Assembly (NCBI GenBank): GCA_001599295.1
Contig: BCGN01000003.1
Location: 186,001 to 250,000 of the forward strand
DNA length: 64,000 nucleotides
Direction: 5' to 3'
Origin: Sporopachydermia quercuum
Lineage: Eukaryota
Shown: positions 3,918 through 57,026 of the stretch, in pieces
Numbering within the stretch: the first letter of the stretch is position 1
Layout: the number at the start of each line of letters is the position of its first letter
The notes under the pieces: generated by a model
Told to the model about the DNA's origin: nothing
The model's database searches: none
Seen by the model: the letters and a program-made list of their open reading frames with translations, nothing else
Made by a program: the position numbers and the translations under genes

Positions 3918-4541
3918 TCTCTGAAAAGACATTTTCTACAGTAAGTAATGCCATTACGTTAATCGTGTAGCGGCTGAAACGCATTTACGTTGATTGCTTT
4001 TACAATTAATTCTACAATTATGCCACAGGTTCATATTTTTTGTACCAGCAACAATTCAGTTGATGTAATTATACCACGTAACCCGCAAAAACAGCAATTN
4101 TNGTAAAAGCGGTCATCAATTACTAAAACACAGCATGCGGGATAATGAAAATTACAGAAATTCATGTCATTTCTGTAGCATAAGGCGGGATTCAATGTAT
4201 CTCGTAGATTGTCAGAGGAAATGACATGGAAACCTGATCAGCTTGGGTGAACTTTCTTGAGAGGATTCCCGATTTCTTCCGAGCTTTTCGGTACCTGCCG
4301 GAGATCGGAACTAATACTGAAAATAGAAATGATATTTCCCAATATGGTATTGAATACAGCCTTGGGTGTCAAAGTCCTCGCTTAGTTTTTGCCTTAATAA
4401 GCAGATTAATTTATGTGTACGGATTTTCTATCGCCCTCTTTTTCCCGTTTTCGGTCAGTGGATTACCTTTTCTGCCCATGCCTAACCGTGAGACCAGGAT
4501 TTCCAAAAGAGTAAGTTCATCCCCATTTATAGCCGTTGTGT

Positions 4542-7500
4542 TTACTCAGTTAGGAAACAATCGTCACTAGAAAGGATTTTGCGGCGTTTCTTATTGCTAG
4601 TTATAGTGCTATCAGTAACATTACCCTTTTCAGCGGTATTCATATCCAAAGCGGTAACATTGAAACTTGAATTGGGTGATGGCAGTTTATGCAAAATGTG
4701 ACGTGGTTTCCTATTTGCGGGTTCCATTTTCCGTCCCGGCTCCAGTCCCGGCTCCCCTGGTTTAAGCATTGAACTACCCAATCGGGCAGCTTGTGGCGCA
4801 ATACTGTTTACACTGCCACAGTTATTAATACGGCCCTCGCTAAAATCAGTAGTCCTTGTGGCTGAAATTCTACTACTTGCAGTAATTCGGCCATTATTTT
4901 CAACCGTATCATCCCTGGCCTTTTCGGTGTTATAATTANCATCAGTAACTGTATTAGTAGGCCGGTCGTTGGTATTCCCATCATTGGTACGCCACTTATC
5001 ATTAACATTGATGCTGGTGTCAGAGTTAGCAGCATAGTTAGCGATCTTATCAATAAGAGTGTCACCAGCAGCAGCATTAGCAGAGTGGCCAGTTTTACTG
5101 TTAGTAGTTCTAACAGTATTAATAGCTATAACAGTGCTATCAGTATTGACAATAGCACTATTCTTACTACTGTTACTATTGAAACTCACAGAATTATTAG
5201 CATTGTTGATGTCAACAGCCCTAACAGTGCTGTTTATAGTATCTATATTAGAATCAACAGCAGCAGCACCGTCATTTCTGGATATCTTCTCATTCTTATT
5301 ATCAACACTTCTGCCGTTCTTTGTGATCTCTGCATGATTTCCATAATAGCTACCAAACACATTCATATTAGAANCATTGAAACTTCTGTTTGCTGAAATT
5401 CTAGTACTTCCAGCTTTTCTAGCATTTCTAGCGCTTCCGTTCTCCTGTTGGTTGTTTTGCCCTTCGATATTTCTGGAATTATGATTATTGTTATGAACTG
5501 ATTCATTANATATGAACAATGTACTGAATGTCTGAGTATCTTCTGTTTTGATTTCAGGCAAATTGTCAGCAACTTTTTTATTCTTGGGGTTCTTACTGCT
5601 ATAACTATCAACCGTGCTGTTCTTCGGCTTATCATTAGAACTACCCACAAATTCTTCGACACGTTGAGATTTCTCACTGTTCTCACGGCATTCCTTCTCC
5701 TCCTTCCCATTTCTATTTCCATTTCCATTTCCTTTTCCTTTTCCCGTTCTCATTCGCAATTGGCTTCTTGTTATTCTTCTGTTCTCCGGAAAGTTTTGCA
5801 GGGTTTCATTTTCATTGGTTGAAATAAGTTTCCTGTTGTTTTTTGTTTTTGTTTTACTTTTCGTTGTAGTACCAAAAGGTTGGTTCAAATTCTTAGGAGC
5901 TTTTGCATTGTTATTGAAAATCGAAGCTGATGTTGCAGTTGATATCAAATTGGTAAAACTTCCAGAATTGACGATACTTTCATTAGTGTCAATAGAAGAG
6001 TCAAAAGTATCACCAGAATTATTAGGCACAGCATAATCATCAAAGGTAGTATCATAATTATTATCGTAGGTATCGTTATAATCATCAGTTATACTGTCAG
6101 TACTGCTGGCATCTGAACTATAACTATCCACACCATCCTTACCATCAATAGAAGAGGCGGTAGAGCTTCTACAGTTAAACATATCACCAGTATTATTTCT
6201 CCTGTTCCGTTTCTTATTGCTTCTACTGCTTTTATTCCCTCTATTCCTTCTATTCCTTCCATTCTCAACTCCATTAAAATGACCATCCATCATCAAATTC
6301 TGAATATTTGACTCAGTACGAAACAGGGAATTTACCATTATATTCTGATTTGATTCCAAGCTAACTAATCGTTCGTACACGTCTTCAGACGTTTTCATCA
6401 ATGCACTGAGGCTTTTCTCATAAGAAACAAGCTTGGTGTCCGTTAGTTTTACCATGTTGAGAGTTTCATTGTTGAGTTTTCTTGTTGCTGATGTGAATGT
6501 TTCTACTATTAGAAGAATTGTTAGTAGTTAGAATTTGAGTCGTTGATGAATGATCCAATCAATGAATGGATGAACGAAAAATAGGAACCAGCAAATATTC
6601 GATATGTCGGTAGCAAATCTTTGCATTATAACCAGGATGGTAGCAACGGGAGCCAGTAGTGATATGAATAGGCAAGTAGGGTAGCACTATAGCAACATAA
6701 CAGGGTGAACAGATGTTTCAAGATATTCTTTGATAGAACTGGCATTTACTCATTCAGTCGCTAGACGTCAGTGATAGACAGAAACAGCCATTTGTTGAGA
6801 ATTAAATCTTAACATCTAGTGAATAAAGGATAGGAAGTTCATGAAACAAATGTTGTGATTGTTGTTACTTCTTTTATTTGTTTATACCTATAGACGAGCA
6901 GAGCCGTTCAGTCAAACGGCGGTATTCAGTAATTGATATCGAATCAACTGTGGTAGTGGTAGTCACCATAAGTAATCCTAGAATCTCCAGCCAAATGAAA
7001 TCTTTTCACAATCGGTTCCATTCACAGTTTAAGTGCTATTTGATGAAGTACAACGAAGTTCTCCAGCTATAANCTAGGTCACTTGATCATAATAGCATAC
7101 AGTGACATGCTTTCCATGAGTCGTGAAATGTTGTAGCGCATCATGCAATTATTATCGTAACTACCAGTAATCAGTCCAACAATTACTAACAAGCACAATA
7201 AAATAATGGTAATTGCTATCACAAACAAATAATAATCATAATCATTATCATCAAATTGCGGTTCATTTTATCCAATTCACACAATTCATTAAGTTCTGTT
7301 TATTAACAATCAAATGGTATTCATACATTTAGCATTCACCTCATTGCTTAATTCATCAAAACGGTTGTTGAACTCATTCAGCCGCTTATTCAATCGTTCA
7401 TCAAACTCGTTCAGCCCATTCACTCGTTTCTCTATCACTTTTGTCCAGTTGTTCATTTCTTCCTTCATTTCTATCGTCAAGAGCTCAAGCCTTCTCACCC

Positions 7501-7693
7501 AAGATACCATACTGTCACAGTCATTGTCATGATACTTCATAGGATGAATAGTACTAGTGGCGGTATTAGCAGTGTTAGTACTAGTATTAGGAGAGGTAGT
7601 TGTTGATGATGGCTTATTAAGAGATAGTTGGGATAGAATATTTGATTGGGATTGGGTCAGTTGAGAGAGCTGAGAAAACAGTTGAGAGTTCAT
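4542..7693 (-). CDS. REC107: Meiotic recombination protein Mer2/Rec107 orthologue; exons 7693-7327 and 6505-4542 (776 aa); 821-nt phase-1 intron 7326-6506
   Basis: Exon 1 [15 protein letters not shown] resembles S. cerevisiae Mer2 [15 protein letters not shown]. Exon 2 has [13 protein letters not shown] and RRITRS. Donor GTATGA, branch TACTAAC (6526-6520) and acceptor TAG give an in-frame join. Position next to LSM8 and MDE1 matches S. cerevisiae YJR021C-022W-024C. Confidence 0.8.
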
Positions 7694-9068
7694 CTTGATG
7701 TAGATGTATATATGCTTTGCAGATGTGCTAAGTTTGTTTCTCGGTTTATTGAACCTGTTGGATTGTTAATATTCCTTCAGTCGAGTGACGGTGAGTCTTA
7801 AGAAGATTAGCTGTTCTATTAGATGTACTAGATACAGGAATGATTCAAGGTTTGTGAACATCTGCCAATTCTTTTATGGGGAAACTGTTTGATGTAATGT
7901 CAAGCAATAATTATTAGAAAATAACCATGTTCTATGCATGGATGAACACAGCACAGGATATTCTCGTAGCATCGTAAGTCCATAACAGCCTATGCATAGT
8001 GAACTCGGTGTAACACTATGCCTAACGCAAGTGTTTTGTCCAGTGTTTAGCTTATCTTTCTAAACACTTCATGATGTATATCGCAACGTATAACATCAAA
8101 CAGTCACCATCGAGTGCGAATCTCCTTGGATCAAATGGAACTGTGGATGACAAATCAAGAACACACAGCAAACAGAGAACCAAACAGAAAACAATAGAAA
8201 CGAGGTAGTCATACAGATCTTCACACTTTCTCACAGAAAGGCATCAACACAGCACCTTGTTTCCTACACAGTCGTCAGTGTAACAGCAACAACGGCGGTA
8301 ATATTAGAACTCAATTGGGGTCAGTTTAGATTGCTCTTGAAAGTCACATCAAGTAAACAACTAGACTAGGGAAAATCAAAAATGCCTTTAATATAAGTCA
8401 ATCTTTCCAACTGCTTGTGCTGGTAGTATATTTGTTATAGAATAACTGTCTATTGTCTAGATCGTCGCTTGATGGTCTTTCTGTAAGTTGTCTATCAGTT
8501 AGCTAACAGCGACAAGCACTACTTATNGTATCCTTCTATGCGAAAGAGTATAAAACATTGTTGTTCGAAAATCCCAGTAATTTCTTGTCTATCCTTACCG
8601 TTTTATGATGATTTTGTATACATTTCTTTTATTTGTTTGATAAACAATTAAGTAAACAACAAGGAAGAAGGAAGAAAATGTGGGGGAACAGGAAATTGTA
8701 TGGGAAATTAGAGTCTTGTGAATGACCCTCTGTTTTTCGATGGAATTGAGTTTGTGATTGTATTTATTGATTGTGATGTGATGACTGATACAATACCACA
8801 GAGAGTGAATTGAAATTATTTGCATAGGAACAGAACGTATCACAAAAAGGTGATACATATCTTGATTACAAAAACATAATAGTTTCAGTTACAATCACAT
8901 ACTTTCACCCACAAAAAGAAGCAGTACGTGCAATCACCGTTGTGAATATTGTATTGTGACTCTAGATACTACAGGCGCTTGCACCAAGCGATTCAAGTGT
9001 CTCATCATCATTAGCATTTAAGAAATTGCATAAGGACACGATATAATAAAACAGAACAATCAGATACA

Positions 9069-9634
9069 ATGTCCAGTTTAAATGCTTTCATTAATAGTAA
9101 GTAGAAGAAATATTGAAATTGAGCTTGAAAATTGTCGAGGCATACTAACGAATCAATAGAAAAGGTCACGGTCATAACTACTGAGGGAAGATTATTTGTG
9201 GTAAGTATTGGAAAGGATTAACTGATATATTCTCAAATCACTAGATCTGAGAAGAATGTGTGGAGACAATGAAGCTTGACTCCAATGTACTTCGCTTAGG
9301 ATCTTCTGACGCAAAGATGATCGAGAAAGGACATCCTGCCACACTCGCACTTCATCAGAAATTGACATTTCCTATAGCATACATGATACTAACAAGAATC
9401 GGACAGGGGAAACTAGAAGGGTATGACCAAGCTGTCAATCTAATACTATCGCAGACAGAGGAACGAATAATAACACCAGATTCTCCTGGTGAAATAATCA
9501 AACTAGGTGTATATCTTTTACGAGGGGATCTAGTAGTTCTATGTGGTCTCATTGATGAGGAACTAGATAATGAGATCAACTGGGAGAAAGTAAGAGGCCA
9601 AAAGCTGAAACCTTCAAGGAATCTGAACAAATGA
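9069..9634 (+). CDS. LSM8: U6 snRNA-associated Sm-like protein Lsm8; exons 9069-9096, 9160-9200, 9407-9634
   Basis: Spliced product MSSLNAFINKKVTVITTEGRLFVGKLEGYDQAVNLIL...LGVYLLRGDLVVLCGLIDEELD has Sm1/Sm2 motifs. Both introns are GTAAGT...TACTAAC...YAG. Confidence 0.93.
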
Positions 9635-9797
9635 AAAACTAATAATAATGATAAGAAAANCTGATAATAAAAAAATGGAACAACGACTAAAAAGCAGGTT
9701 CTACGACAAATCCACGAATTATAGATAGTAACACAAATCAACTTTCACACAACCACAATAACAGCAGTGATATACCATTAATCAATCAAATAATCAT

Positions 9798-10803
9798 TCA
9801 GTTGATAACTTGATTCACATACATTTTCTCCGCACCAATTGCACAGTCAGGAGGAATACCAAACTGCTTCATTTTGATCGCAAGCTCAAGCAAATAGTCA
9901 ATAGCTTCATTATAAATCTTAGCCTTCCACACAGTCTCTCCCCACACATANATACCATGACGACGCACGAGTACTGCTGTTGCTTGAGGATAATTCTTGA
10001 TGGCTTCTTGTAAACTATCGGTCAGATCTTCTTCATGTGCAGTGTTTTCAATAATAGGGATTTCTAGGGTATCAAAAAATCCAAGACTACCTGGTTCTGT
10101 TACTTTTGGAATAGCTTTAATTTGTTCAATATTAGCAATTCGAAACACTCTGTCGTACAGCAATGACACCATTACCGCGTTTTGTGAATGAGTATGAATG
10201 CAAGCTCCAGCATTACGCATTTTATATGCTGACATGAAAAGAGGTGTGCAGGCTGATGGTTTATACACTTTAGGTTTTCTCAGAATCTTCTCTGATTCAT
10301 AATCGAGAACAAACATATTTTCAGGAATCATTCGCTGGTCTGTTAGTGAATTTAGATGGATATTGGTGCTGGATTTCAATCTATGAGCATTGCGAACTTT
10401 AGAACCTTTCATATCTGTTCTCCATACTACTCCTGATCATTTCCAGCCTAGAATCTAGATTTACATACCTCTTTCTGAACTCCCGATGGAGCAATGAAAA
10501 TTTTGTCTCTAATAAATAATTTTTAGTACGCAAGTCTTCAGAATTCATAACTGGTCTGGCCCATTTAAGTCAACAAACTTCAGACATGAGTACGTACTCA
10601 CTGTCAATTGATACTTACTCTTCCCTAATACTGATTCCCCCACCAGTACCGGTGACCCAGCCATTGTTATAGAAGATCTTACACAATTCACAAATAAGAT
10701 TAGCAGGATGATTAGGGTCCTCTGATGTAATCAGAATATCTTCTTCCCTTTCTAAGTCGAAAGCCTCTGTAGGCTTTCCGTTATGATTGCATTTACAAGC
10801 CAT
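9798..10803 (-). CDS. MDE1: Methylthioribulose-1-phosphate dehydratase (methionine salvage); exons 10803-10619, 10508-10469, 10334-9798
   Basis: Spliced frame gives [33 protein letters not shown]...SACTPLF...ACIHTHS...VLVRRHG, the class II aldolase/APIP motifs. Confidence 0.95.
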
Positions 10804-18158: not shown

Positions 18159-20013
18159 ATGTCGGAATCTTTTGATGATAACTTGAACGTAAATTCAAGC
18201 GACTTCAGACTTCATAGAGCAATGTCAGTGTCAATGAAGTCTCATGCTAGTTGTAAATATGTTGTGGTAAGTTGCGTTTGGTAAAGGAATAAAGAAATGA
18301 AGCGTTCTGTTGATACTGTTGCTAGCACTGTGTCTCAGTGTTCAGTGTTCTATTTCAATTGCTATCTCAAACTGCTGGTTCTGACAATTTTGCTTATCTA
18401 GGGAGAAAGATTGGGCTCAGGAAATTATGCTGAAGTAAAAGAAGGGATGCATATCGAAACAAAAATGTATGTCAATACTTTGCATTTAACTGCTTTTCAC
18501 GGTAGACCAAAAATACAGTGAAGATTGAGATTAACTAACATACAATTAGTCATTATGCTCTGAAAGCTATTAAGAAAAAGCTAGTGTTTGGAAGAGAACA
18601 TATGGTAAGGATACTTGTGTTATTTATGCTCATTTTACTCTTTTTTCTTCCTCTTACTGCCAGTATCAACTTCCTAACAATCATCTACAATTATAGATTC
18701 AGAACGAAATCAAAGTATTGCAAAGAATATCTCAAGAGCACAAGCATTTGTTGACTCTTGTTGACTATTTTGAAACAGATGATCATCTATATCTCGTAAC
18801 TGATTTATGCTTAGGATCTGATTTATTCGATAGAGTATATACAGAAGAAACCATTGAGGAGAAATCAGTAATCAAGATCATAACAGCTGTTTTGAAAGGT
18901 ACGCAATATTTACACTCTCATGGAATTGTTCATAGAGACTTGAAAGCAGAGAATATTCTATTCAGGCAGAAGATAACAAAAAGTAAAGAGGGGGCAAACG
19001 TCTATAATGACGATGATATAGTTATTGCTGACTACGGATTAGCTAGAATCATTGATGTTCCAGGAACCATGCTCATGACAATGTGTGGTACTCCTGGCTA
19101 TATGGCACCAGAAATGTTATCAAGAAAAGGACATGGTAAGGAAGTCGATATATGGGCAATTGGCGTTTTGACGTATTTCGCTTTAGGAGGATACACACCA
19201 TTTGATCAAGAGAGTGTTTTAGCTGAACAAGACGCAATAATAAAAGGTGATTTTGATTTTCTACCCAATGAGTATTGGATTGCTGTTTCCAATGAATCAA
19301 GAGACTTCATTGCCAGATGTTTAACTGTTGATATAAAGAAGAGAATTACAGTAGTAGCAGCATTAGACCACCCCTTTCTCAATGTCAGCCATCCCAGAAC
19401 GTACATTCCCGAATGCGATCCTTCAGTACTTGAGTCTGCTGTTGGAAGCCTGGGAAATAATGACTTTTTAAGACGTCATAATAGTAGAATGTCTTCTACT
19501 ACTTTGTCGAGACATAATTCTAATGTATCACATGATTGGAGTTCGGAGAAACCTAACCTTGGATTCTCTACTAATAAACTGTTATCGTCAGATATTGAAC
19601 AGCCTATGGCGTCACCTAAGCAAATCACATCTCCCTTCAACGAAAGAACTAATTCGAGTACATCTATCAGTGATAAGTCAGGAACAAATACTCACCAGGC
19701 TCCTATAGCAATACCGGCAAAGATACCTAGATCAACAGTTGGCAATAAGCAGGCCGACCATCTAACTAAGGAACAGAAACTTAGAGGGAAGTTGTCTACC
19801 TCACCGGAGACTGCTGAGGACTTTATATCTTTGTTGGAATCTACAAGTAAGCGTCCGTCAATAACAGGGTCGATTTTACGTAAAGGTGATCATGAAACAG
19901 ACTCGATTCTATCGAGACGTTCTTCTAACAGGAAATCAAGAGAATTCTCTTTCAATAGGGGAAGCTCTTTTGGCAATGGCTTATTAGATATGACGTCTTT
20001 AGATAATGCATGA
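18159..20013 (+). CDS. TDA1: CAMK-group Ser/Thr kinase, Tda1/CmkB-like; exons 18159-18266, 18402-18466, 18550-18604, 18697-20013
   Basis: Spliced N-lobe CKYVVGERLGSGNYAEVKE...YALKAIKKK...GREHMIQNEI, then LVDYFET, HRDLKAENILFR, DYG, CGTPGYMAPE, VDIWAIGVLTYF..GYTPFD. Kinase identity is certain; the symbol is tentative. Confidence 0.75.
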
Positions 20014-20245: not shown

Positions 20246-20328
20246 TGACGGATGCGAGATTCGAACTCGCGCGGACTCTGTCCAGCAGATCTTAAGTCTG
20301 CCGCCTTAGACCACTCGGCCAACCCGCC
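20246..20328 (-). tRNA. tRNA-Leu(TAA), copy 1
   Basis: GGCGGGTTGGCCGAGTGGTCTAAGGCGGCAGAC-TTAAGA-TCTGC, long variable arm, GTTCGAATC T-loop, T-rich terminator downstream. Confidence 0.97.
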
Positions 20329-20858: not shown

Positions 20859-20941
20859 TGACGGATGCGAGATTCGAACTCGCGCGGACTCTGTCCAGCA
20901 GATCTTAAGTCTGCCGCCTTAGACCACTCGGCCAACCCGCC
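20859..20941 (-). tRNA. tRNA-Leu(TAA), copy 2 (identical to copy 1)
   Basis: Same 83-nt sequence. Confidence 0.97.
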
Positions 20942-21970: not shown

Positions 21971-22400
21971 ATGGCTTCACGAGTAAGTTAATATTATTTT
22001 AGATACTACTATTGCAGTGCCACAAGTTGTCTCCTTCTTCTCATGCAACATATACTAACCAATAACCCACNAATAATAGAAACCAGGAACAGATCAAATA
22101 CTGTTCGTCAAGAATCTTCCATACACGTCTACATCACAAGAACTATTCGAACTTTTTGCAAAATTTGGAGCTATACGGCAGATCAGAAAAGGGACAGATG
22201 ATAATACTAAAGGCACTGCCTACGTTGTGTATGAAAAGCCACAGGACGCCAGGGTAGCCGTGGAAAGACTTTCAGGATTCAATTATAAAAATAGGTATCT
22301 GGTAGCCTTGTTTCATTCTGTCGATAAGATGAAAATGGATGATTTGAAGACTAGACAAGAAAGGCTAGAGAAAATTAAAACAGAAAATAATATAAAATAG
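21971..22400 (+). CDS. SF3B6: Splicing factor 3B subunit 6 (p14 branch-site protein); exons 21971-21982, 22080-22400; absent from the ORF track
   Basis: MASR|KPGTDQILFVKNLPY...ELFELFAKFGAIRQIRKG...TKGTAYVVYE...LSGFNYKNRYLVALF is the p14 RRM signature. Intron GTAAGT..TACTAAC..TAG. Confidence 0.92.
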
Positions 22401-26743: not shown

Positions 26744-28151
26744 TCATGGTTGAGCCACTTTAACAGATGTACCACCTTGCTTAGCACTTGATAATGCTGC
26801 ATCGATAATAGCCAAATGATGGAAAGCCTTTCTCACAGGAACAACTATCAATGACTTATCCTTCTTACTTAAAACCTCGTAGATGTTCTCATACTCAGCT
26901 ATAACACCATTAGTCTTCTTATCTTCCCCCTGGACCTCAATTATTTGAGCTTCACCAGCNTTCTGCTTGCTATCTCCTTCTTGGAGATTAATAGTAGGTT
27001 CTTTGCCAAATGCCCCATAGTCATATACAATTGACCCATTGGTACCAAATATTTGTATAAACTTCTTTTTCTCACAGGCACCATAAGTCGAGCAGTATGA
27101 ATAGTTTCCAATTACTCCAGATTTCAGCTTCATAGTAGCATACAGCATATCATCTGTACCAGATGTCTCTTGGAGCTGTCTGGTGTATCCAGCAACAGAT
27201 TCAACTTCTCCTAACAGTTCTGTAATAATAGTAACCTCGTGAACACCACCGTCTGAAATATAACCTCCAATATGTTTTGGATGAAGTCTCCAGCTTGTTC
27301 CCAGGTACTTTGACCCTTTATCGTAAGGGCCTGATGATTGATGGATGAATCCAACGACAGATCCAATNTTGGGCAATANTTTTTTAGCTTCAGCCAAGCT
27401 TTTCTTGAAGGCGAAATTCTCCATCACGAAAACAGGTGTATCAGGATATTTGTCAGCTGTAGAAATAATTTCTCTTGCTTTGTCAATGGTGATAGCAATA
27501 GGCTTTTCAATAGCAATTGGTTTGCCAGCAGAGAGAGCTTTCTCCACAACAGTTACATTCTCCTCAGTAGGAAGAACCGATACGACGAATTCAACATCTG
27601 GACTGCTGATGATATCGTCAACAGAGTCCAGAACGTTTGCTTCTGGAATATTTGCTTTCTTGGCGAATTCGATTGCTCTAGATTTTGTTCTGTTGGAGCA
27701 AGCGACAAGGGTGAATTTGTCAGAATCAGCCTGGATGGCAGGCAGATGATTATTGGTAGCGAAAATCTACAAGAAGACATGTTAGTAGAGGAATAGGAAT
27801 AGAATAGTGAGCACCAAGGATTAGTCATATTAATAGTTTAGAAAGCAGGAGATTCACTAATCAAGCAAGTCTAGATAGAGACATAGATCTACTGGTTGAT
27901 TGGTGAGACTATCGAAAAAGAACAGCAAGAACTGAATCGACTGAATTAATAGATCACAACAAACAAAGTATAGAAAACCAGNGCCGCAATCAACAATTCC
28001 CAAAATGCAATCAGCTGATTCAATCAAATATCTAATTGAAATTCCTTATAATCAAAAATAAAACTAATCCAATCCACCTGATACGCCAAAGCCTATGAGT
28101 CCTTTGAACACTTACACCCGTTCCNGCAATTCCTGTTTTAATTGGAGCCAT
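26744..28151 (-). CDS. Gfo/Idh/MocA oxidoreductase (YMR315W-like) paralogue A; exons 28151-28116, 27766-26744
   Basis: MAPIKTGIAGTG|IFATNNHLP...NRTKSRA...IEKPIA...GGYISDGGVH. Intron GTAAGT..TACTAAC..TAG, 349 nt. Confidence 0.9.
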
Positions 28152-29293
28152 TTTGAATATAAAGAGGGAAGAAAATGTTTATTAGTTAAATATCTTCTTG
28201 ATAGAGTTGAAATTGATATACCTATCAATTGATGATTGATCGGTATCAAATAGTGTAACCAGAGGTTGAAGGGCAAGCAGCCAGATCAATTGAGTTTGAG
28301 AGATCAACGAAGTAGCGAGCAGAGGAACAATTGAATGATTTGTCAGTCCAGTTGTTAAATACTTCAGTTGAACAGTTAAATCAAACAACCTAGTTATGAA
28401 TACTAAGTAATTTATGAGTAACAGGATAAGTTAATAGGAGATGAGTTGTCATTAGAAGAAAGAATGGAATGATGAAATATAAAGCGAACTTCGTAGAAAT
28501 AATGGTAAGAAAAAGGATAAATAAAGTTTGGGTTAGATTTAAAGTTTGGCAGGCAGAAATGCTTAAATTTGATCCTGACAAATAGTCCATGGTGATATTA
28601 GGTAGAAGTGTGTTTAGATATGGTTGATTCAAAGTAATGTAGAAGTAACTTGTAGCGCAGAAAAAAGCTCGAGACCGATCCAGTCAATGGATAATTGTTT
28701 GATTTCCGGAGTAAAACCAGCCGATTTGGTGATAAATACAAGGATGGGTTAGTGAAGGAAGGTAGTTCCGCAGTGGATGCACATATATATGCCCATAGAT
28801 TTACCCAAGTATGACAAATATATGGGAAAATATAAATGTACTGCAAGACCATTCTTCTACGGGTAATTAATGTCATTGGAGTTATCTGTGGCATATATAG
28901 ACTGTTTCCGTACATTCCGTTGTTTATTATATTTATGCACAATACTCTAATAAATAGCGCTACATTTTACTGTTCTTTTGTTGACATGTTCTTGAAACAT
29001 TAAGCCCATAAAGCGTTATACAACTGACAGTAAACAATTAAGTTCAGCATGGCGATGACATATTCAAGACACACATAAAACATACATAGTATATAAAACC
29101 TTATTCCAGAGCTCATTACGCTTACTGTTTCGCCGTATTCACAGTTGATCAANTCTTTTCCTAATTTTTTCATTTAATTCAATTGAACAAGTCTAAGCCT
29201 TATCTAGGCCTAATATTTACTATTTAGCAGAAGCTACTAACCACCTGAAAAAGGATATACAATCTCAAACTCGTCTCATGTTCATATCCATGA

Positions 29294-30355
29294 TTATGGC
29301 TTGACAACTGATACATATGCTCCATCTGCTCTTGAACTATCGACGATTGCATTGATCACCGCATAATGATGGAAAGGCTTTTCAATGGGAAGTTTCAATT
29401 TAGACTTGTCATTCGAAGAAATCGGATCATATAGAGCTTTAAATTCATTCTTAACACCAACCCAGTCATAGTCCTCATCCACTAACCTGTAAACAGTTGT
29501 TGGTGATAGTTCAGACGTATTAGGTCCAGTCGTAAGCCTAATACTAGGTACTTCAGGAGGATCTTGAGGATACTCGTAGACAATTGATCCTTCTAATCCG
29601 AAGACTTGCAGTCTATTCACAGGTTCACAGCCACCAAAACAACCGCCAAATTGAACTTGACCTACAACGCCTGATTCCATTTTGAAGGTAGCAAAGAATG
29701 TATCAGGAGAGCTTGATGTGGGTCTTAGCTCTTCAGTTACAGCCGACACTGATTTCACATTGCCAAGAATCTCTGTTAATAACGCAATCTCATGAACACC
29801 GGCATCAGCAATAACGCCACCAACATGATGGGGATTTGCCCTCCAACCAGTTGCTAAATATTTATTGGTATCGCAGTATGTAGTGGTGATTTGGTGAGTG
29901 AAACCAACTATCTTACCAATCTTTGGTAAAAGAGAGCGAGTTTTTTCCACACCTTGAAAATGAGCCCAATTTTCAAGGACCATAACAGGAATTGATGTAG
30001 AGTTTACCAGATCAACTATTTTCTTTGCTTCCTGTAAATTGGCAGAAATTGGTTTCTCTAGCACAATCGGTTTACCTGCTTTGATGCAGGCTTCAACCAC
30101 TTGATAGTTGAACTCCACAGGTAACAAAGCATCGATTAACTCTACTTCAGAATCACTTAGCAACGAATCAAGGTCATCATATACTTTATCAGGGTTGATT
30201 CCTGCTTTTGCAGCAAATATCTCAGCTTTGCTTTTCGTTCTATTATAGCAAGCAACTACTTGGTACTGATCAGGTAGTTCCTTCAACACTGGTACGTGTC
30301 TGTCTCTGGCGAAGATACCAGTACCAACAATACCTACTTTGATAGCTTTGCCCAT
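29294..30355 (-). CDS. Gfo/Idh/MocA oxidoreductase (YMR315W-like) paralogue B, intronless
   Basis: VGIVGTGIFARDRHVP, NRTKSKA, LEKPIS, GGVIADAGVH. Confidence 0.92.
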   Translation of the reverse strand: MGKAIKVGIVGTGIFARDRHVPVLKELPDQYQVVACYNRTKSKAEIFAAKAGINPDKVYDDLDSLLSDSEVELIDALLPVEFNYQVVEACIKAGKPIVLEKPISANLQEAKKIVDLVNSTSIPVMVLENWAHFQGVEKTRSLLPKIGKIVGFTHQITTTYCDTNKYLATGWRANPHHVGGVIADAGVHEIALLTEILGNVKSVSAVTEELRPTSSSPDTFFATFKMESGVVGQVQFGGCFGGCEPVNRLQVFGLEGSIVYEYPQDPPEVPSIRLTTGPNTSELSPTTVYRLVDEDYDWVGVKNEFKALYDPISSNDKSKLKLPIEKPFHHYAVINAIVDSSRADGAYVSVVKP

Positions 30356-32541: not shown

Positions 32542-35331
32542 TATGCTATTCTTTGTTTATATATCTTCCCAATGGTACGGTGATGTGAGTTGCGCCTTAT
32601 TAGTTATGGTGTCTGCTATAGATTATTCTGATAATGATGCCAAAATCTAAGCATATAAATCTTTCCAATAGAACATCTACTTCTCATGTAGTTACTCTAT
32701 CAAATATATTTAATCTAAATTATATTTTCCTTGCTTCTTTTCCCTCTTTTCCCTCTAGTTTGTTTTTCCTTCCGGGCTTTCAAGGTCTGAAAATTCTCTC
32801 CCTGACAAGAACCACTTCAGTATTTATAATGATGATATTTAAACTTTGTCAGGCATCAGAATAGAGTTTGAAGAACGTTGGCTTAAAATTAAACACCCCT
32901 ATAAACTTAATTAGAGTTATATTACCTTATTTTCGCCTTGCTGTGGTAATTTCCTTCTCTATTTCCTTAGACAATGGGAAGAGGAGATGGTGGATGATGA
33001 TCTGAGAGAAAGCTGACCGCTTTAGTGTACAGAACTAGAATAACAAGCTTGACTTGACTATGGAAATTGAATATGAGTGTTGGGATTTGGCTTGTATCTT
33101 CTCGATGCCTGGTGTTTTTCAGGAAATAGTTAGAACTGGTGTGTAATGAAGAATATTCCGATTGTGGGAAAGTGAGTGAATAGGAGTGATCCTACGAGGC
33201 TTGGCTATGAATGGGGAGAAATTAAGAGATTGGTTCAGATCGATTGGAGGGACCTGCAAATTCAATTTAAAGTAGGTGAAAACTTATGTGGAATAAGCGA
33301 AAGAAGGAGCTAAAATGACAGGGCTGTGAAAATTTATAACTAGTGTTTATGAAAGATTTTTGTTCCATCAGTGATAGAAGAAGAATATCACACTTTACCC
33401 ATTGTATAGATAGTATGCTAGCAAACTATTGCACTGTGAATCAAAATAATTAAAATACTGGAGAAGTAAAAAACTAACAAATACTAACTGTGTATCTACT
33501 ATCTACAATAAAGCCATTGGCACTCTTTCCAATTTGCTTTCTGTTCTTTCTCTTTACTTTTCCATCCATCCATTCATTCTTCGTGCTTCTCAAGCCTTTC
33601 TATACAATTTTCTCATACAAAATATTTTTTTCTTCCTCCAAGGTCATGGAGAATCCAAAAAAGGTTAAGGTTCTCTACCATACAGAGAAATCTAACTTTA
33701 TTCTCGTGTTTAATCAAGCTGATTATGGCTGACCTTGCTCCCGTTCAATTACTCATAGTCAAGAGATAAATTAATAGAAGGTTCATTTTCAAGTTAAAGC
33801 TTGCCAATATTTCTGGGCAGTTGATGAAATTTTCAGTTAATTCAAATATGGCTGCTGAAATTGCCGACGTAAACCGGCATCCATTAGATGATTCCAATAC
33901 GATTCGCACACCAAACTCTACTGTCATCATCATCATTCAATGCTTGGCAAGGGTGAACAGTAACAAGCAGTTGTAGGTTCAGCTGTTTATAGTAGAGTAC
34001 AAACTGAAAAAAGTAGTAACAACAGATTCACCTACATTTACGCACTATCTTAGTAGGAAACATACTCTTCTTTCACGTTCCTACAGTCTGATCCTTGAGT
34101 TGTTTGAAATGTTTCTTTCTGCAATTCTTAATTGGATTGTTCTCCGGTCAAACTCTATATGCACGAGTCTAACTTTAATTTGTCCTAAAGCCTGAAATCT
34201 GGGGAATGCCTAAGCTGAAAGATTTCCTTCATTTCGTCAATACTGCATATGTGGACGCATAAATAAGAAAGATTGGTACTATAATGTATAGCACTTCCTT
34301 TCAATTTGCCGAAAATCCATATATTATTTACTTAGGACATTTAAAACTCTCACAGATCAACTCTTCGTTTTCTTCTCCTTCTCATTTTCCTGATTTGAAA
34401 AAGAAGGTGGCTGTTCTGGATTCTATGCCCAGTAGAAAATACCACCTTTGACTTTAACTAATATTCTTGGACCATTGAATGNTCTTGACATACATTTAGA
34501 GTATTAGGTTTTATCTTGGTTATAGATATTTACATTTTTCAACGGTCTTCAATGTCTATCTATTCCCAGAGATTAAGAGCTAAGCTCCGCTGCGAAATCT
34601 CCAGAGCAAGAAAAGTCGGNACGATTTCTGATTATGTGATATGAAAATGACAGTTGTTGTTNCTCTGACGGCTCAACTACTGCCGTAATGTTGATGGAAA
34701 CAACACATTGACTATCTTCCNCTAATTCAAGGCAAAGAGAACAAAACAAAAGATCTTAATCAACACAAATCCACTAACTTCTCAGCTCTTCTCCTTCTAA
34801 TATTCAACAAAAACAATCACATACATTGTCCCTTGGCTCTTTCTTAAACCCCACTCCACGTACCAGGCACACCATGCACATCTTCTGTACCCTAATGCAT
34901 AATCCTGTACCCCTCCATGTACTCCGCTAATTATTTCCAAATATGGAACCAACTCAATATCACATGCCGCTACATGCATATAACTCAAACCTTAGTCATC
35001 ATAACTCAAAAATCACCTCCTTCTTCCTATCAACTTTTTGCAGTTTTTCTATCTTTCTGTTGTTCTAATTACGCCGATCAACTAGCTCTCCTGTTTATTT
35101 GGCCTTGTATTTAGACATTTGATTACTACAAAAGTTTCACAATTTGATTATTCAGTGGCATAGGCTTATAGAACAAACTCATAGCAGGTCAATGCAGAAT
35201 TTGCTCCAGAAAGACTATTCAGCAATCCCCACATTTCATCCAGCATACATTCTCTCACTGGGTGAAACATCTGCTATGACTATTCTAACTNGTCTATGAT
35301 AGCTGCTGAATTTAACCATTTGATATAAATC

Positions 35332-43377: not shown

Positions 43378-45540
43378 ATGCATTTATCAAAAGCAATCTC
43401 CAAGCTGGGTTCTATCGAATCTATAAACAGCAAGTACAGAATATTTACTTACATTAGACCAACTGAAGCAACTAAAAAAGAATTCTTTAAGCAGAAAAAT
43501 GGAAAGGGTATGTTATTCTCGATGGATTTTGCGTTCGTTTGCTTTATTAGAACTGATCTATGATGGGTTCAAGCGTAACTATTGTACTTTAGTACTAACA
43601 TACGTTCGGTTCCTAGGTCCTTTGAAAGGTACAATAGTAGCTATAAAAGATAATATCTGTACCAAAGATGAACTTACGACTTGTTCATCAAAGATTTTGG
43701 AAGGTTTGTTTAGGATCTTTTTAAGTCAAGTTACCAAAAGACTGGACAATTAGATAATTATTGTGAATGAGGTATTGAGTTAATGAGTTAGTTACTCATA
43801 TTTTGCTCATATGACTTAACCTTGTCATTCACTGTATTATTCATCTTCTAACAAGGAAATACCAGATTATAAACCACCTTTCAATGCTACTGCCGTCGCA
43901 CTCTTAGAAGAAGCAAGTGCAACCGCTGTTGGTAAAACTAACATGGATGAGTTTGGAATGGGATCAGCAGGTCTCAATTCTGTCTACAAGCCAACTATCA
44001 ATCCTATTAGTGAAGAAGGAACGGAATTATCTGCTGGTGGATCAAGCAGTGGAAGTGCAGCTGCTGTCGCTGCTGATCTATGCGATTTGTATGTATCCTT
44101 CACTAGAAAGCACCAATAATGTCTTGTAACTTCTCTTCCAGTACTCTCTTAGTGCAGCTTCAGCATAGAACATTACCCACTCTCAAGTATCATTGTATCG
44201 TATCAACTAACAATTAACTTATAGTGCTTTAGGAACTGACACAGGAGGCTCAGTGAGACTTCCTGCTGCTTACTGCGGAGTACTAGGATTCAAACCTTCG
44301 TATGGAAGAATTTCTCGATGGGGTGTAATTCCCTATGCCGAAAGCTTAGACACCGTTGGAATATTATCCAAGAATCTCGATCTGGTAAAAAGCGTCTATG
44401 GTAAGTCGAATTTGAGCTTGTTAACAGATATCAATAATTGTCGTATTTCTCTTTCATTTTCTCCTTCCTTCCTTCCCTTTCCCTCGTTCTAACATTTACT
44501 CCTCCTCTATCTACAGATGTACTAGATAACCATGATGCTAAAGATCCAACATCTATCACTACCAAACTGCGAGAGGAAATAGAAGAAAAAGTCTCAAATT
44601 ATAAACCAAATAAATTACGAATTGGAGTCCCTTTGGAATTGAACTCTTTTAAACAAAACCCTGAAATCAAACAAGCATTCTCATATCTCCTCAAGAGGAT
44701 ACTCAAGAACAACCTGGCTGAAATCGTCCCTATATCATTATATTCTACAACATATGCCTTATCTGCTTATTATGTAATTGCTCCTTCAGAAGCTTCCTCT
44801 AGTCTTGCTAGATATGATGGTATAAGATATGGATATAGAGCTGAGGATGACCTTCAAGATGATGTATTATATGCACCTACTCGTACGGCATTTGGTTCTG
44901 AAGTAAAAAGGCGTATTTTATTGGGTACTTATAATTTAAGTGCAGAGTAAGTATTTAGTTATTATCATGGACATAATGCTTTTCATCATAAGTATTATGT
45001 CTATTACTACTACTATTTTTTTATTTTTTATTTTTTATTTTCGTTGTGATATTTTTATCAATATTAATATCATTCTAAATTAAGATACTAACGGACGAAT
45101 TCAGAGGATATGACAATCATTATTTGAAAGCGCAAGAGGTAAGAAGTGTATTAAGGACAGAATTGAACCACTATTTTGCTCTGCCAAATCCTTTCAGAAC
45201 TTATAACCATGAAGGAAAATCAACCGAATATACTGATTCCAGTGGTGAGTTCATATCATACTTCAAATCGGAGACAAAAGATAACGGTATTGATTTTATA
45301 TTACTACCTACTGCAGCAGATTTTGCTCCTACATTAGAAGATGCTGAAAACCAATCGCCGGAAGTTCAATTTTCAACTGATTTGTTAACAGTTATTTCAT
45401 CGTTGGCTGGATTGCCAACAATTAGTATACCATTAGCTATTGCTAATAGATCACCAAGTGGACAAACAGCAGGTGTCCAATTGATTGGCCAAGTTGGTGA
45501 TGATAGAAGAGTATTAGAATATGCAGAATGTTTGTTATAG
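43378..45540 (+). CDS. HER2: Mitochondrial Glu-tRNA(Gln) amidotransferase subunit A; exons 43378-43507, 43617-43703, 43866-44088, 44225-44400, 44517-44946, 45105-45540
   Basis: Amidase signature restored by splicing: [65 protein letters not shown]. Confidence 0.93.
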
Positions 45541-52443: not shown

Positions 52444-53451
52444 ATGCCTATTTCAAAACACATATTATCTACAGATTCTGATTTGCCATCATTGGCAGAC
52501 ATTAAAGCAAAGAACGAAAAGGAAAATCCAGATCTTCCACCGGAAACTGCGTGGATCTGGGGTCCTGACGATGAGCTTGGAAGAGTTAATCTTCTTACTC
52601 CAGAAAGAGTTTTGAATGCTAAGAAGGAAATTGAATCAGGAACCGTGGCATCCTTAAATTGGTCAATTTTACTCCCTGATGCTCCTTCTTTTTCGCGTCC
52701 AAAAGCTACCTGGAAATTAAGACCCATGGGCCATTGGTTTGACGACGAGATCATAATGAATACTCAGTCAGGTTCTCAATTCGATGGGTTCAGGCATTTC
52801 CCTCATTTACCCACTAATATGTATTACAACAATTTGAAACCTGATGAAATTGATTCCGATTCAATTCGGTGTGGTATTCAAGCTATGGCGGAAAGAGGAA
52901 TTGCCGGAAGAGGNGTTTTGTTAGATTTTGCCTCTTGGGCAGAGGAAAAAGGTATTGAATATGATGCATTCACATCTTACAAAATTACTGTTGATCAGTT
53001 AAAACAAATTGCTGCCCATCAAGGAACTGAATTTCAAGTTGGGGATATCTTGCTTGTAAGATCAGGTTGGATGAAGAGTTACGAAGCGAAAAGAGATAAA
53101 GATCCTCGCTCAGTTAGAGGATCTCCTAATCCTAGTCATATTGGGGTGGGACAGGGCGAAGAAGCTAAAGAATGGCTTCATGATAATTATTTCTCCATTG
53201 TGGGTGGTGATTCACCATCATTTGAAACTTGGCCTTTTGGTTATGATGCAGGAACTGGAGCAGGTGCAGAGAATGCTTTGCACAACTTTTTGCTATGTTG
53301 CTGGGGTGTCTTGATTGGTGAGATGCTTGATTTGGAGGATCTGGCAGAGAAATGCAAGAAAGCGAAGAAATGGTCTTTCTTTTTCACTTCTGCACCTATC
53401 AATTCACCTGGCGGTGTAGCAACTCTGGCCAATTCATTAGCTATTCTTTGA
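52444..53451 (+). CDS. Putative cyclase / kynurenine-formamidase-like metal hydrolase
   Basis: WGPDDELGRVNLL, NTQSGSQFDGFRH, GIAGRxVLLD, GDILLVRSG, IGEMLDLEDL, FFFTSAP: fungal cyclase-family motifs. Confidence 0.85.
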   Translation: MPISKHILSTDSDLPSLADIKAKNEKENPDLPPETAWIWGPDDELGRVNLLTPERVLNAKKEIESGTVASLNWSILLPDAPSFSRPKATWKLRPMGHWFDDEIIMNTQSGSQFDGFRHFPHLPTNMYYNNLKPDEIDSDSIRCGIQAMAERGIAGRXVLLDFASWAEEKGIEYDAFTSYKITVDQLKQIAAHQGTEFQVGDILLVRSGWMKSYEAKRDKDPRSVRGSPNPSHIGVGQGEEAKEWLHDNYFSIVGGDSPSFETWPFGYDAGTGAGAENALHNFLLCCWGVLIGEMLDLEDLAEKCKKAKKWSFFFTSAPINSPGGVATLANSLAIL

Positions 53452-55997
53452 TTATTGATGTTTGGTCATTGGATTAGTGATATATTAAAATATAGCAACG
53501 GTCTCTTTTCCTTATATACGACTTATAGTTGACAATTACGATCAGGAATTATATGAATCATTGATTATCTTCAACGTAGCGTAGCTCTCAACTTGTCAAT
53601 TGACTTCAAAATAACGTTGTAAACCTTAAAGTTTAATAAGAATAAACACTGTAGGTTTCCTAAATCAGAAAGACTTGACTTTGAATTCAANAATGAATTC
53701 TTATGAGCTATCAAATTCAGTTTGCAAATTAGAGTTTAGTGTACATGAAAGCTACATTAAAGAACATGTTAAGACATTAAAGAGTGTGATCTTGTTAACT
53801 GTTTAATTGAAAGTTGAACAAAGTAACCAGCCTGTTATGTTAATTATTTCTCAATTAATTCCAGCTTTCCAATTCGTAGGACCGTAATAGTTTGTAGACC
53901 AACATACATATACTATGTAGTTATGAATAAAGTTTACAGTTTTCAAGTAGATGAGGAATGAAGATTACACATTAGACAATACAATGTATTGAAATCTATA
54001 AAGAAATAGGTTTCAATAATTACTATCTATCTTACTATTTTTTTTCATCACCCAAAGAGCTTTATTAGAACGTTAAAATGTAAGAGTATTGTATTACTCT
54101 GATTGTCAGCCATTGAAATTTCAACAATAATCGAAATGCATCAATAAAGCATTACAGTTTATATTGAAGTTTGAATTAGAAAGCTAAATAGAACTTAATT
54201 TGTTATCATTATCACAAAAGAAAAATTCTCTTAAAAAAAAATTCAATCAGTTATTCATGGGAAAAATTGTTTAGAATAAATCTATTGTTATTATTGTAAT
54301 GGCTAAAGCCTGTAAGCTGCACATAGCAGAGAACAATTAACTGAGGTTAGAAGGTAAGTAATGAGAACTACAGAGTTTTATTCATACTAAATCAAGAGCC
54401 AATTCACNAAGCTCATCAGAACCATCCTGACTTTCTATAGTAGTACTCTCGGAATACTGTTCATTGATTCTCCACAAAACATCATATCGTTGGGCTGCAT
54501 ATGCCTATTCAACAGGCTTTACTATATCAACTATTACCACTAGTATATTTGGTTAATTTCTCTTAGTTAACTCAATTCTTTATCAAATAGATTTAGCCAT
54601 CTAGTTCATTGTTTGATTGTCTTGATTTATGGTAAAAAGAGTGTTGGCTATAAAATGGGATATCTAATAAAATAAGAAAGAGACTTTACTAGGCTCTACA
54701 TGCTTGTGCATGTTTCATAGTTCAGACTTAACTGTTTAGATTACGTGAACCAAAATAGTAGGACTGAGAAGCAATGAAATTGCGGAGTTTCTATTTATCA
54801 ACGATGGATGGTCTTGTACATTTAACAGGTTTCAACAGATATCAAGTGGTGGTCAACAAGGACTGAAAAGCAAGGCGATGGAGACTTTGACAAACATACT
54901 TTCTTACGATATAGAAAGAGATCAATCAGCTAATAAACAACAATCTCTCTGTCTATCATTTATCGTTGGATTCCTATTCTTTGATTTTGGACTCAATTGA
55001 ATGAACTGGATGATTCATATGCATCGATATGATACAAAATACTATTTATTATACACTATGTAACTGTCTTTACTGATTTTTGATTTTAGTGAGACCATTA
55101 AAATGTTTATGAAGAGTGTAACCTTTTCAGAGCAAAGTTATGTAGAGAAAAAAGTGAAAACTGGCCTGAAAGCCATATACCCTCAAGTTGAGAGAGGGTA
55201 GATAAGACACCCGAACTAATATTTTTCTTATGATTAGTAAGAATGATATAATACCATATATATTAAGTATCTATGAAATTTTAACTAGATAGTCTTTAAA
55301 AAACCAGGCCAACGTGGCTAATCAAAATAATCTCTAAATTTCACATTTACCATGCAGATTATATTAGCAAACATCTCTCTCCAATTCGCTCCTCTATGGT
55401 CCGTCACCAGATCATGCTCCTGATATTTCGCACATGCATCTAGTAAATGCAAATAAATCAAATAAATCAATTTATCAATCACAATTCTCTAATAGGGGAT
55501 TGGATCCTCATATCTTTATAATTAAATTTCTCTCTTTAACAATTCCCTCTAGACTTCCCTTGTTTCTGTCATCAATTTATTCATTGTTATCATTCACCCA
55601 TACTTTTTGCTTTTCCCCATTAAAGATTTATCCGACTGCTGAAAATGTGGGGTAAACTTTAAACTAGTTGCTTGTTAGAAGACATTTGAGAAAAGAAACA
55701 CCAGAACAAAAGCAAGAGCAAATTAATAAAAGATGAGTAAACAGAAATATCGAATGAGCTGATATTGAAGTCGTTGGAGAGGAGAGTATATAAGTAGAAA
55801 GGATGCTAAAGTTTGGATGTAGTATGATAGAGAAAGGTTCTAACCATATGGGAGTATGGGAGATGGTGATTTGTAGACAATTGAGTACTAGGAGTGTAGA
55901 TCAATAAGGAGAGAATAGTGCAAAATAATTATCTGGATTCTTTGATGTATTATCACTATTACCTTTAGGAAGGTGTATCAGAATAAATCAGTATAAA

Positions 55998-57026
55998 ATG
56001 AGCACTGTTAATACGACAAAAGTTATTAAACCACCTCAAATAGGTGAGATGACAGAAGAGAATCATACAACCAATGTTCAACTGATCAATTCTAATCATG
56101 ATAACGAAAGATTAAAGTTTTTGTTGTCAAGAATTGTTGTTCATCTTCATGAGTTTGCAAGAGAGACCCTATTAACAACAGATGAATGGATGGCAGGTAT
56201 TGAATTTCTAACTCAAGTTGGTCAAATGTGCAGTGACATTCGTCAGGAATTCATTCTTTTATCAGATGTTCTTGGATTGTCAGTTTTAGTTGATTCATTA
56301 TCCCATCCCAAGCCTGATAATGCTACAATTGGAACATTATTAGGACCTTTCCATACAGAAGATGCACACGAAGTNGAATTAGGTGATACTATTATCAAGA
56401 ATCATCATACCACACAAAAGCCAGGTGAACCTTTAATTATATTAGGTACAGTTAAAGACACTGATGGTAATCCAATAAAAAATGCTAGTCTTGATATCTG
56501 GCATTGTGATACGGATGGACTATATGATACTCAATATGAAGATAGGGATGGACCTGATTTAAGAGGAATTTATAAAACTGATGACGAAGGAAATTTTATC
56601 ATTAAGTGTATTCGACCTGTTCCATACTCGATTCCTAGTGATGGTCCAGTTGGAAAGCTTTTGCATAAAATTGGTCGTCATACTTATAGACCTGCTCATT
56701 TGCATTTCATTATCGATGCACCTGGNTACGACCAATTGATCACCGCTTTGTATCATAAAGGTGACCCATATGAAAAAAGTGATGCCGTGTTTGGTGTTAA
56801 GAATAAGNTAGTTTTTGAGTTAGATAAGTGTGGCAAAGATGTGGCCTCTAAGTATGAGATGAACGAAGATGATTGGCTACTCAAGTGGGACTTCGTTTTG
56901 GTGAATGAAAGCGAAGCTGCTAAGATTAGAAAAGAAAGAGCTGAAAAGGTTGTTGAAGAGAACAAGAAGCATGATGTATACGTCAAGCTAGATGAAAATG
57001 GATTACCTGTTCTCGATCTTGATTAA
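55998..57026 (+). CDS. Hydroxyquinol/catechol 1,2-dioxygenase (intradiol ring cleavage)
   Basis: RQEFILLSDVLGLS, LGPF, and Fe ligands in GLYDTQY, PVPYSIP and RPAHLH; SDAVFGVK. Confidence 0.92.
   Translation: MSTVNTTKVIKPPQIGEMTEENHTTNVQLINSNHDNERLKFLLSRIVVHLHEFARETLLTTDEWMAGIEFLTQVGQMCSDIRQEFILLSDVLGLSVLVDSLSHPKPDNATIGTLLGPFHTEDAHEXELGDTIIKNHHTTQKPGEPLIILGTVKDTDGNPIKNASLDIWHCDTDGLYDTQYEDRDGPDLRGIYKTDDEGNFIIKCIRPVPYSIPSDGPVGKLLHKIGRHTYRPAHLHFIIDAPXYDQLITALYHKGDPYEKSDAVFGVKNKXVFELDKCGKDVASKYEMNEDDWLLKWDFVLVNESEAAKIRKERAEKVVEENKKHDVYVKLDENGLPVLDLD

Follow-up and report, generated by a model that had tools for sequence, protein, structure and literature searches.

A split MER2-like gene with a candidate Mer1-type splicing switch in an intron-rich budding yeast

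For splicing under developmental control in budding yeast, textbooks turn to MER2 and its regulation by Mer1, the product of MER2 being a coiled-coil protein that helps to start meiotic DNA breaks. Here we analyze a MER2/REC107-like gene within a stretch of 64,000 nucleotides (nt) from Sporopachydermia quercuum (contig BCGN01000003.1, positions 186,001 to 250,000 of the forward strand), hereafter called the window and numbered from its first letter; the single intron of this gene combines a weak donor with a close match to the Mer1 enhancer. The elements of the gene are listed in table 1. Joining 7327 to 6505 produces an open frame of 776 amino acids (aa) in total, in which the coiled coil continues across the junction for about 70 residues of exon 2 and is followed by a long tail rich in Asn, Ser and Thr. 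Use of the second AG of the tandem acceptor would place TAA at the junction, a possible second route to a dead message. Searches of the 821-nt intron for an Rfam family, for copies of its sequence elsewhere in the window and for an open reading frame (ORF) of at least 40 aa lying wholly within it all returned nothing, and its first 246 nt show no significant fold (z = -0.75). (Single N letters, 67 across the window, occur once in the intron, at 7073, and three times in exon 2; their scatter suggests a consensus with ambiguous base calls.)

Table 1. Coordinates of the MER2-like gene, its splicing elements and its neighbors in the window
Feature	Position	Strand	Remarks
MER2/REC107-like exon 1	7327..7693	minus	ATG at 7693; 122 codons + 1 nt, phase 1; includes a T-T-S-P site; coiled coil begins at SWVRRLELLTIEMKEE
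5' splice site GTATGA	7321..7326	minus	exon bases AAT before the donor (aau/GUAUGA)
Octamer ATACCATT	7313..7320	minus	intron +7..+14; AYACCCUY matched at 7/8; A for the third C
First in-frame stop TGA under intron retention	7310..7312	minus	closes the 127-aa ORF 7310..7693
Second TACCATT in the intron	7205..7211	minus	about +116
MER2 intron	6506..7326	minus	821 nt, phase 1; single intron of the gene
Branch site TACTAAC	6520..6526	minus	consensus; overlapping TCTAAC just before; 15 nt ahead of AG
Tandem acceptor AG/TAG	6503..6507	minus	first AG (6507-6506) keeps the frame, T+TA = Leu (read by eye, frame checked)
MER2-like exon 2	4542..6505	minus	653 codons + stop; 3 X residues derived from N
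LSM8 exons 2 and 3	9160..9634 (9160-9200, 9407-9634)	plus	Pfam LSM; best solved structure LSm8, 3.1e-19; exon 1 not located
MDE1 (methylthioribulose-1-phosphate dehydratase), three exons	9798..10803	minus	TIGR03328, 154 bits vs cut-off 137

At the boundary between exon 1 and the intron the minus strand reads ...AAT GCT AAA T/GTATGA ATACCATT TGA, which is the succession of donor, octamer and stop (7326 to 7310) that the initial annotation had reported. The RNA form of the octamer is AUACCAUU, one letter off the Mer1 enhancer consensus AYACCCUY (PMC3082912), so that the direct reading also bears out the annotated match at seven of eight positions. The region 7080-7800 is identical, with no other letter, in contigs assembled from three DNA runs that belong to two studies, one of these runs possibly being the source of the window itself; because the same letters are found in the three assemblies, the A at +6 of the donor is not an assembly slip.

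The region could also be read without any intron, as two genes in tandem, one encoding a coiled-coil protein of 127 aa and the other a protein of 637 aa starting from ATG 6455. Such an arrangement, which we consider highly improbable, would fit with exon 2 having its own ATG 50 nt past the acceptor and no detectable homologue, as well as with the intergenic size of the 821-nt gap. However, TACTAAC lies 15 nt before precisely the AG that unites the two frames, and the frame remains open for the 16 codons upstream of ATG 6455, up to the acceptor. Moreover, the coiled coil spans the junction, a product of 127 aa would miss most of the Mer2 coiled coil, and both of the Mer2 genes used for comparison below are split in the same phase and region.

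Searches with the protein itself gave few matches. Exon 1 aligns with the Pfam family Mer2 (PF09074; residues 29-110 against positions 1-76 of the 193 in the profile) with E = 0.0028, its 17.9 bits falling short of the family cut-off (27.7); the start of exon 2 has no match to this family even at E = 10. A phmmer search of exon 1 against 1.84 billion proteins found one low-complexity match and no relative; exon 2, searched against 5.8 billion proteins, yielded neither a homologue nor a family, and for the MER2-like protein nothing was retrieved from the ESM Atlas at >=0.9 or among solved structures below E 0.24. Metagenome contigs were scanned with the third exon of MDE1, and 80 loci were retrieved, in three of which (L001-L003) the ORFs were read. 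LSM8 was detected at E <1e-3 in two of the 80. L002 and L003, which are Saccharomycetaceae-like, present the order BNA1, MDE1(+), LSM8(-) and Mer2(+), followed in L002 by TES1 and ESS1, and the order in the window, MER2-like(-), LSM8(+) and MDE1(-), is the same in arrangement and strands; it also equals that of YJR021C/YJR022W/YJR024C in baker's yeast, as given in a source available in part. The gene therefore occupies the orthologous position beside LSM8 and MDE1, in the order and strands of Saccharomycetaceae, and it is these neighbors that make its identity very probable. The block is not universal, because in L001 (5691-8770) MDE1 and LSM8, both intron-less, are adjacent and the gene next to LSM8 encodes a 468-aa protein that is not MER2. 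The best identity of MDE1 with the window is 70%, found in L001, and none of the three loci comes from a close relative of its organism.

Short motifs in exon 1 agree with this position. Its TTSP is aligned to TSSP in L002 and LSSP in L003, and about 30 residues later there follows a W-x-x-(K/R)-L-E block, which in the alignment extends to W..(K/R)LE......(K/R)E; the start of the coiled coil, SWVRRLELLTIEMKEE, is aligned to EWAGKLELESMELREN and EWAGKLEMESVDLREK of the two Mer2 proteins. The S-S-P site of Mer2 is the target of cyclin-dependent and Dbf4-dependent kinases (CDK/DDK). When a profile built from the spliced Mer2 of L002 and L003 was used to rank 607 sequences (105 ORFs of the window, 500 shuffles and two spliced forms), the exon-1 ORF came first with 14.3 bits, low in absolute terms, against 7.4 for the best shuffle. 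In tblastn comparisons of exon 1 with the 80 loci, L002 was found at E 0.023 and all others at E 0.067 or worse; the exon-1 profile matched just L002 and L003, both of which had been used to build it. Near the other end of the protein a KKRRK is found, 13 residues before the C-terminus, a region in which L002 and L003 carry KRRR... and ARTIIPWEE, and no IIPWEE-like peptide is present in the MER2-like ORF or in the 1.5 kb downstream in any frame. From synteny, the S-P and W..(K/R)LE motifs and the weak Pfam match, it is very probable that the gene is the orthologue of MER2/REC107, as the initial annotation had proposed, and we refer to it as MER2 in the following. (CGGCGG occurs at 8293-8298, in the intergenic region between MER2 and LSM8, about 600 nt upstream of the ATG of MER2; it is similar to the core sequence of URS1, the early-meiotic element, but with T at the last C of the core.)

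The Mer2 genes of L002 and L003 provide a comparison for the intron. In L002 it is 80 nt long, of phase 1, with donor GTTCGT and an exact enhancer, ATACCCTC, from +20; in L003 (gene at 4165-5029) it is 64 nt long, also of phase 1, with donor GTTAGT and an exact enhancer, ATACCCTT, from +15. A weak donor with U at +3, accompanied by the enhancer, is thus common to two quite different yeasts. The same phase and region of insertion suggest that the intron in the window is likely to be homologous to these two.

To place the MER2 donor among those of the same genome we considered the 13 introns that could be modelled in the window, namely that of MER2 and 12 others. Six candidate junctions were left aside: intron 1 of LSM8, the amidase gene's first intron, a 5' intron each for DNA2 (GTAAGG 17377 or GTACGT 17919) and dynamitin (GTGAGA 43229), and two unsupported candidates, at 3941 and at 32585-33272. 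Their donors are GTAAGT in eight cases, GTATGT in three, GTAAGG in one and GTATGA in MER2, so that T is present at +6 in 11 of the 12 other introns and A in MER2 alone, as had been annotated. A hand count of the pairs possible with the canonical U1 5' end at -1..+6 gives 4 of 7 for the MER2 donor, 5 for two introns and 6 or 7 for the others. The intron had also been described as long, and it is indeed the longest of the 13, the other 12 having 83-349 nt. As a word GTATGA is not rare in the window (42 copies vs 38.8 expected), and this possibility was rejected.

Such a donor in such an intron could matter without any Mer1. The weak donor and the length of the intron might together limit splicing, and its modulation would then depend neither on a Mer1-like factor nor on the octamer; candidate agents are the U1 protein Nam8 or the release of spliceosomes as ribosomal-protein transcripts fall. 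Besides the pairing with U1 and the length just described, both extreme among the 13 introns, the accessible parts of two studies support this explanation: in a synthetic library the introns whose splicing is reduced by GUAUGA are only those exceeding 120 nt (PMC8496845), and GUAUGA is the non-consensus donor behind the Mer1-independent regulation of SUS1 intron 1 (PMC3201862). Furthermore, Nam8 works on PCH2 without Mer1 (PMC3082912), and meiotic introns are tuned by competition for the spliceosome, according to the portion available of PMC5570110. The near-enhancer is nevertheless left unexplained, and the sequence that follows the donor is not notably rich in U (10 of 24 bases by hand count, vs 35% in the whole intron). 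On balance we regard this explanation as unlikely, though deserving attention.

The octamer was evaluated against the background of the window, in which the two strands together hold 117 copies of AYACCCTY with no more than one mismatch, vs 131 expected from shuffles; exact copies number seven vs 5.24 expected, all of them outside the donor zone of MER2. For a single intron named beforehand, the chance of finding an enhancer with no more than one mismatch at +7..+25 is about 1.7% by our own arithmetic (about 9e-4 per position, multiplied by 19 start positions), and the best that the other 12 introns offer at these positions is a match with two to five mismatches. The second TACCATT of the intron belongs to a word that is found 18 times in the window vs 10.95 expected, a number reached in two of 100 shuffles; in the rest of the MER2 intron about 0.1 copies would be expected (own arithmetic).

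These figures bear on the simplest alternative, according to which the intron is an ordinary constitutive one, its donor lying at the weak end of the normal range and its octamer being there by chance, with meiotic control, if any, exerted on transcription. Enhancers with up to one mismatch are no commoner than in shuffles, and 26 of the 110 one-mismatch matches in the window share the change at position 6 (own count). Loose splicing signals are moreover found in housekeeping genes of this intron-rich organism (branch sites TACTAAA and CTGAC, donor GTAAGG), and the 5' part of the MER2 intron is unstructured, as mentioned above. What this alternative has to accept as coincidence is that the fewest U1 pairs and the sole near-enhancer among 13 introns fall together in the one gene of the Mer1 regulon that the window contains (HFM1, SPO22 and AMA1 lie outside it); if donor and octamer were independent, we estimate the joint chance at well under 1%. 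We consider an ordinary intron a serious possibility, somewhat short of an even chance.

The Mer1-type explanation has difficulties of its own, which weigh against it and are best considered together. Some concern the donor and the stop. When scored with a small leave-one-out weight matrix (positions -3..+8), the MER2 donor is third-lowest of the 13, not the lowest, a result that also speaks for an ordinary intron. The initial annotation had further stressed that retention of the intron would stop translation immediately, and a TGA is indeed present at 7312-7310, closing the ORF of 127 aa; yet its distance is ordinary, for among the 12 other modelled introns six likewise run into an in-frame stop within 21 nt (in a census with heuristic phases, of which at least that of MDE1 intron 2 is probably wrong). 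The stop 17 nt into the MER2 intron thus carries no information, and its reading as a regulatory signal has been rejected.

Other difficulties concern the octamer, which has CCA in place of the intact CCC triplet of the exact enhancer. Mutagenesis has shown this triplet to be critical, as far as the accessible text of PMC3082912 goes; in SPO22, where splicing is 86-88% for the wild type and 18% without Mer1, the same text reports that GCC and CGC abolish the response to Mer1 and that CCG, CUC and CCU give 41%, 85% and 89% spliced RNA, respectively. The third C is therefore the most tolerant position, at which U is fine and G partial, and the change from C to A lies outside the variants assayed in that part of the study (PMC3082912). 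In terms of distance, the octamer (+7..+14) falls within 25 nt of the donor, reviews placing Mer1 enhancers within 18-25 nt; however, it abuts the donor and is nearer to it than in any known case, the enhancers of L003 and L002 starting at +15 and +20. The intron space right behind the donor is occupied by proteins of U1 snRNP, a small nuclear ribonucleoprotein.

The position of the intron and a possible absence of MER1 add to these doubts. The junction lies 57 residues from the conserved Trp in the window and 47 in both L002 and L003, and in the full-length alignment it is displaced by about 58 columns with respect to theirs, although the alignment of exon 1 brings the ends together. Finally, MER1 may be absent from this yeast, given that its lineage reads CUG as Leu (CUG-Leu) and is without close relatives in the databases; among the 17 long ORFs of the window no KH domain was found. 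What speaks for its presence is that syntenic homologues of MER1 have been reported from families well beyond Saccharomycetaceae, namely Phaffomycetaceae, Ascoideaceae and Saccharomycopsidaceae; Saccharomycodes ludwigii has no MER1 and has lost the introns of three of the four target genes (bioRxiv 10.1101/2021.04.22.440946, from the section available). Mer1-like KH domains are also mentioned for Debaryomyces hansenii and Pichia pastoris in the consulted part of PMC3082912. Conservation of the whole regulon (Mer1, four genes, binding site and weak splice sites) is stated for Saccharomyces sensu stricto only, within the available extract of PMC5570110, and our literature search retrieved no paper examining the enhancer outside Saccharomycetaceae.

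Compared with MER2/REC107 of S. cerevisiae, the gene in the window is the same by synteny and motifs, with one phase-1 intron in the N-terminal coiled coil that has a non-consensus donor, an AYACCCUY-type element within 25 nt, a TACTAAC branch site and truncation on retention. The differences are that the donor departs from the consensus at +6 (and +4), while that of the S. cerevisiae type, GUUCGU (PMC7969001), also observed in L002, does so at +3, a discrepancy to be added to the difficulties above; that the octamer, which starts at +7, carries A in place of the third C; that the intron measures 821 nt vs 80 nt and interrupts the gene at a distance from the conserved Trp that is 10 residues greater; and that the protein has 776 aa vs 314 aa and lacks the C-terminal motif of ARTIIPWEE type seen in L002 and L003. 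The introns of MER3/HFM1, SPO22/ZIP4 and AMA1 likewise combine a weak donor with an intronic element, which in their case is read by the KH domain of Mer1, but all four known enhancers are exact and the octamer of the MER2 intron here has one mismatch. In such introns restoring a consensus donor makes Mer1 dispensable (PMC3082912). In S. cerevisiae and its relatives the first intron of SUS1 has the same GUAUGA donor, which is conserved between species and is one determinant of regulated retention, as reported in the part of PMC3201862 at hand; it differs in having a weak branch site, that of the window being perfect, and in being neither Mer1-dependent nor meiosis-specific.

Turning back to activation by a Mer1-like factor, the mechanism would work as follows. 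Owing to its weak donor the MER2 intron would be poorly spliced unaided; a Mer1-like KH protein made in meiosis would bind the octamer and help the U1 snRNP, with Nam8, to hold the donor, and full-length Mer2 would then appear mainly in meiosis, while the unspliced RNA would encode a stub of 127 aa or be degraded. The logic would be that of baker's yeast, with a relaxed enhancer abutting the donor and an intron ten-fold longer. In its favor are the identity of the gene, the long intron, the donor with the fewest U1 pairs of 13, the behavior of GUAUGA in SUS1 and in long synthetic introns, the rare octamer, the tolerance of the third C, the exact enhancers behind the non-consensus donors of L002 and L003 and the reported reach of MER1, whereas the uninformative stop, the mismatch in CCC and the position of the octamer tell against it, so that the initial annotation is sustained in part. 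A rough likelihood calculation (octamer about 1.7%, weakest donor about 15-25%, prior of 0.1-0.25 for Mer1 acting on MER2) would favor this mechanism at face value, but has been heavily discounted because of the core mismatch, the odd position of the octamer and the guessed inputs. Judging from the DNA sequence, we assign Mer1-type activation of MER2 splicing in meiosis a probability of roughly 0.4; splicing of this intron in meiosis only is plausible.

The rest of the window indicates what kind of yeast carries this gene. The 22 CTG codons of SYG1 stand at Leu or hydrophobic columns, and because of this the CUG-Ser and CUG-Ala clades are ruled out; the EXS domain of Syg1 is 52-59% identical to those of Pichiaceae and CUG-Ser1 yeasts alike, with the best values (58-59%) in Ogataea and Candida. 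By its coding sequences the host is a budding yeast with the standard assignment of CUG to Leu, and the protein collection contains nothing closely related to it. Its genes are rich in introns, MDE1 having three exons, LSM8 at least three (one of 41 nt), a protein kinase gene at least four and an amidase gene at least five (9100-10803, 18240-18720 and 43700-45120), and non-consensus branch sites are present (TACTAAA, CTGAC, CCTAAC and TCTAAC); at the amidase junction near 43700-43850 no GT-AG pair fits. A gene for SF3B6/p14 is located at 21971-22400 on the plus strand (best solved structure p14, 2e-27); its fourth codon is followed by an intron of 97 nt with GTAAGT and TACTAAC. S. cerevisiae is not known to have SF3B6/p14, and the host seems to keep a fuller spliceosome than that yeast. 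Elsewhere in the window, two tRNA-Leu(UAA) genes of equal score lie 613 nt apart on the minus strand (20246-20328 and 20859-20941), apparently as a local tandem duplication. The segments 26744-30355 and 52444-57026 contain two adjacent paralogues of the GFO/IDH/MocA oxidoreductases and a putative cyclase beside an intradiol (catechol/hydroxyquinol-type) dioxygenase, which may form a neighborhood of aromatic-compound catabolism.

The locus bears on two questions, namely how old the control of MER2 by Mer1 is and how its enhancer has evolved, and allows both to be put to a concrete test in a yeast that is intron-rich and much further removed. That the Mer1-type switch of MER2 would be far older than the Saccharomyces group, being present in a deep, intron-rich CUG-Leu lineage with the relaxed enhancer AUACCAUU and an intron of 821 nt, is a tentative proposal that its sequence makes worth considering. 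Should the alternative explanations prevail, the locus would serve as a warning that chance can place a match of seven in eight positions next to a weak donor. If the switch is real, the regulon would predate the loss of introns, its enhancer would tolerate a change in the core and a position beside the donor, and its role as the switch would be the reason why the intron of MER2 survived when budding yeasts lost introns on a large scale.

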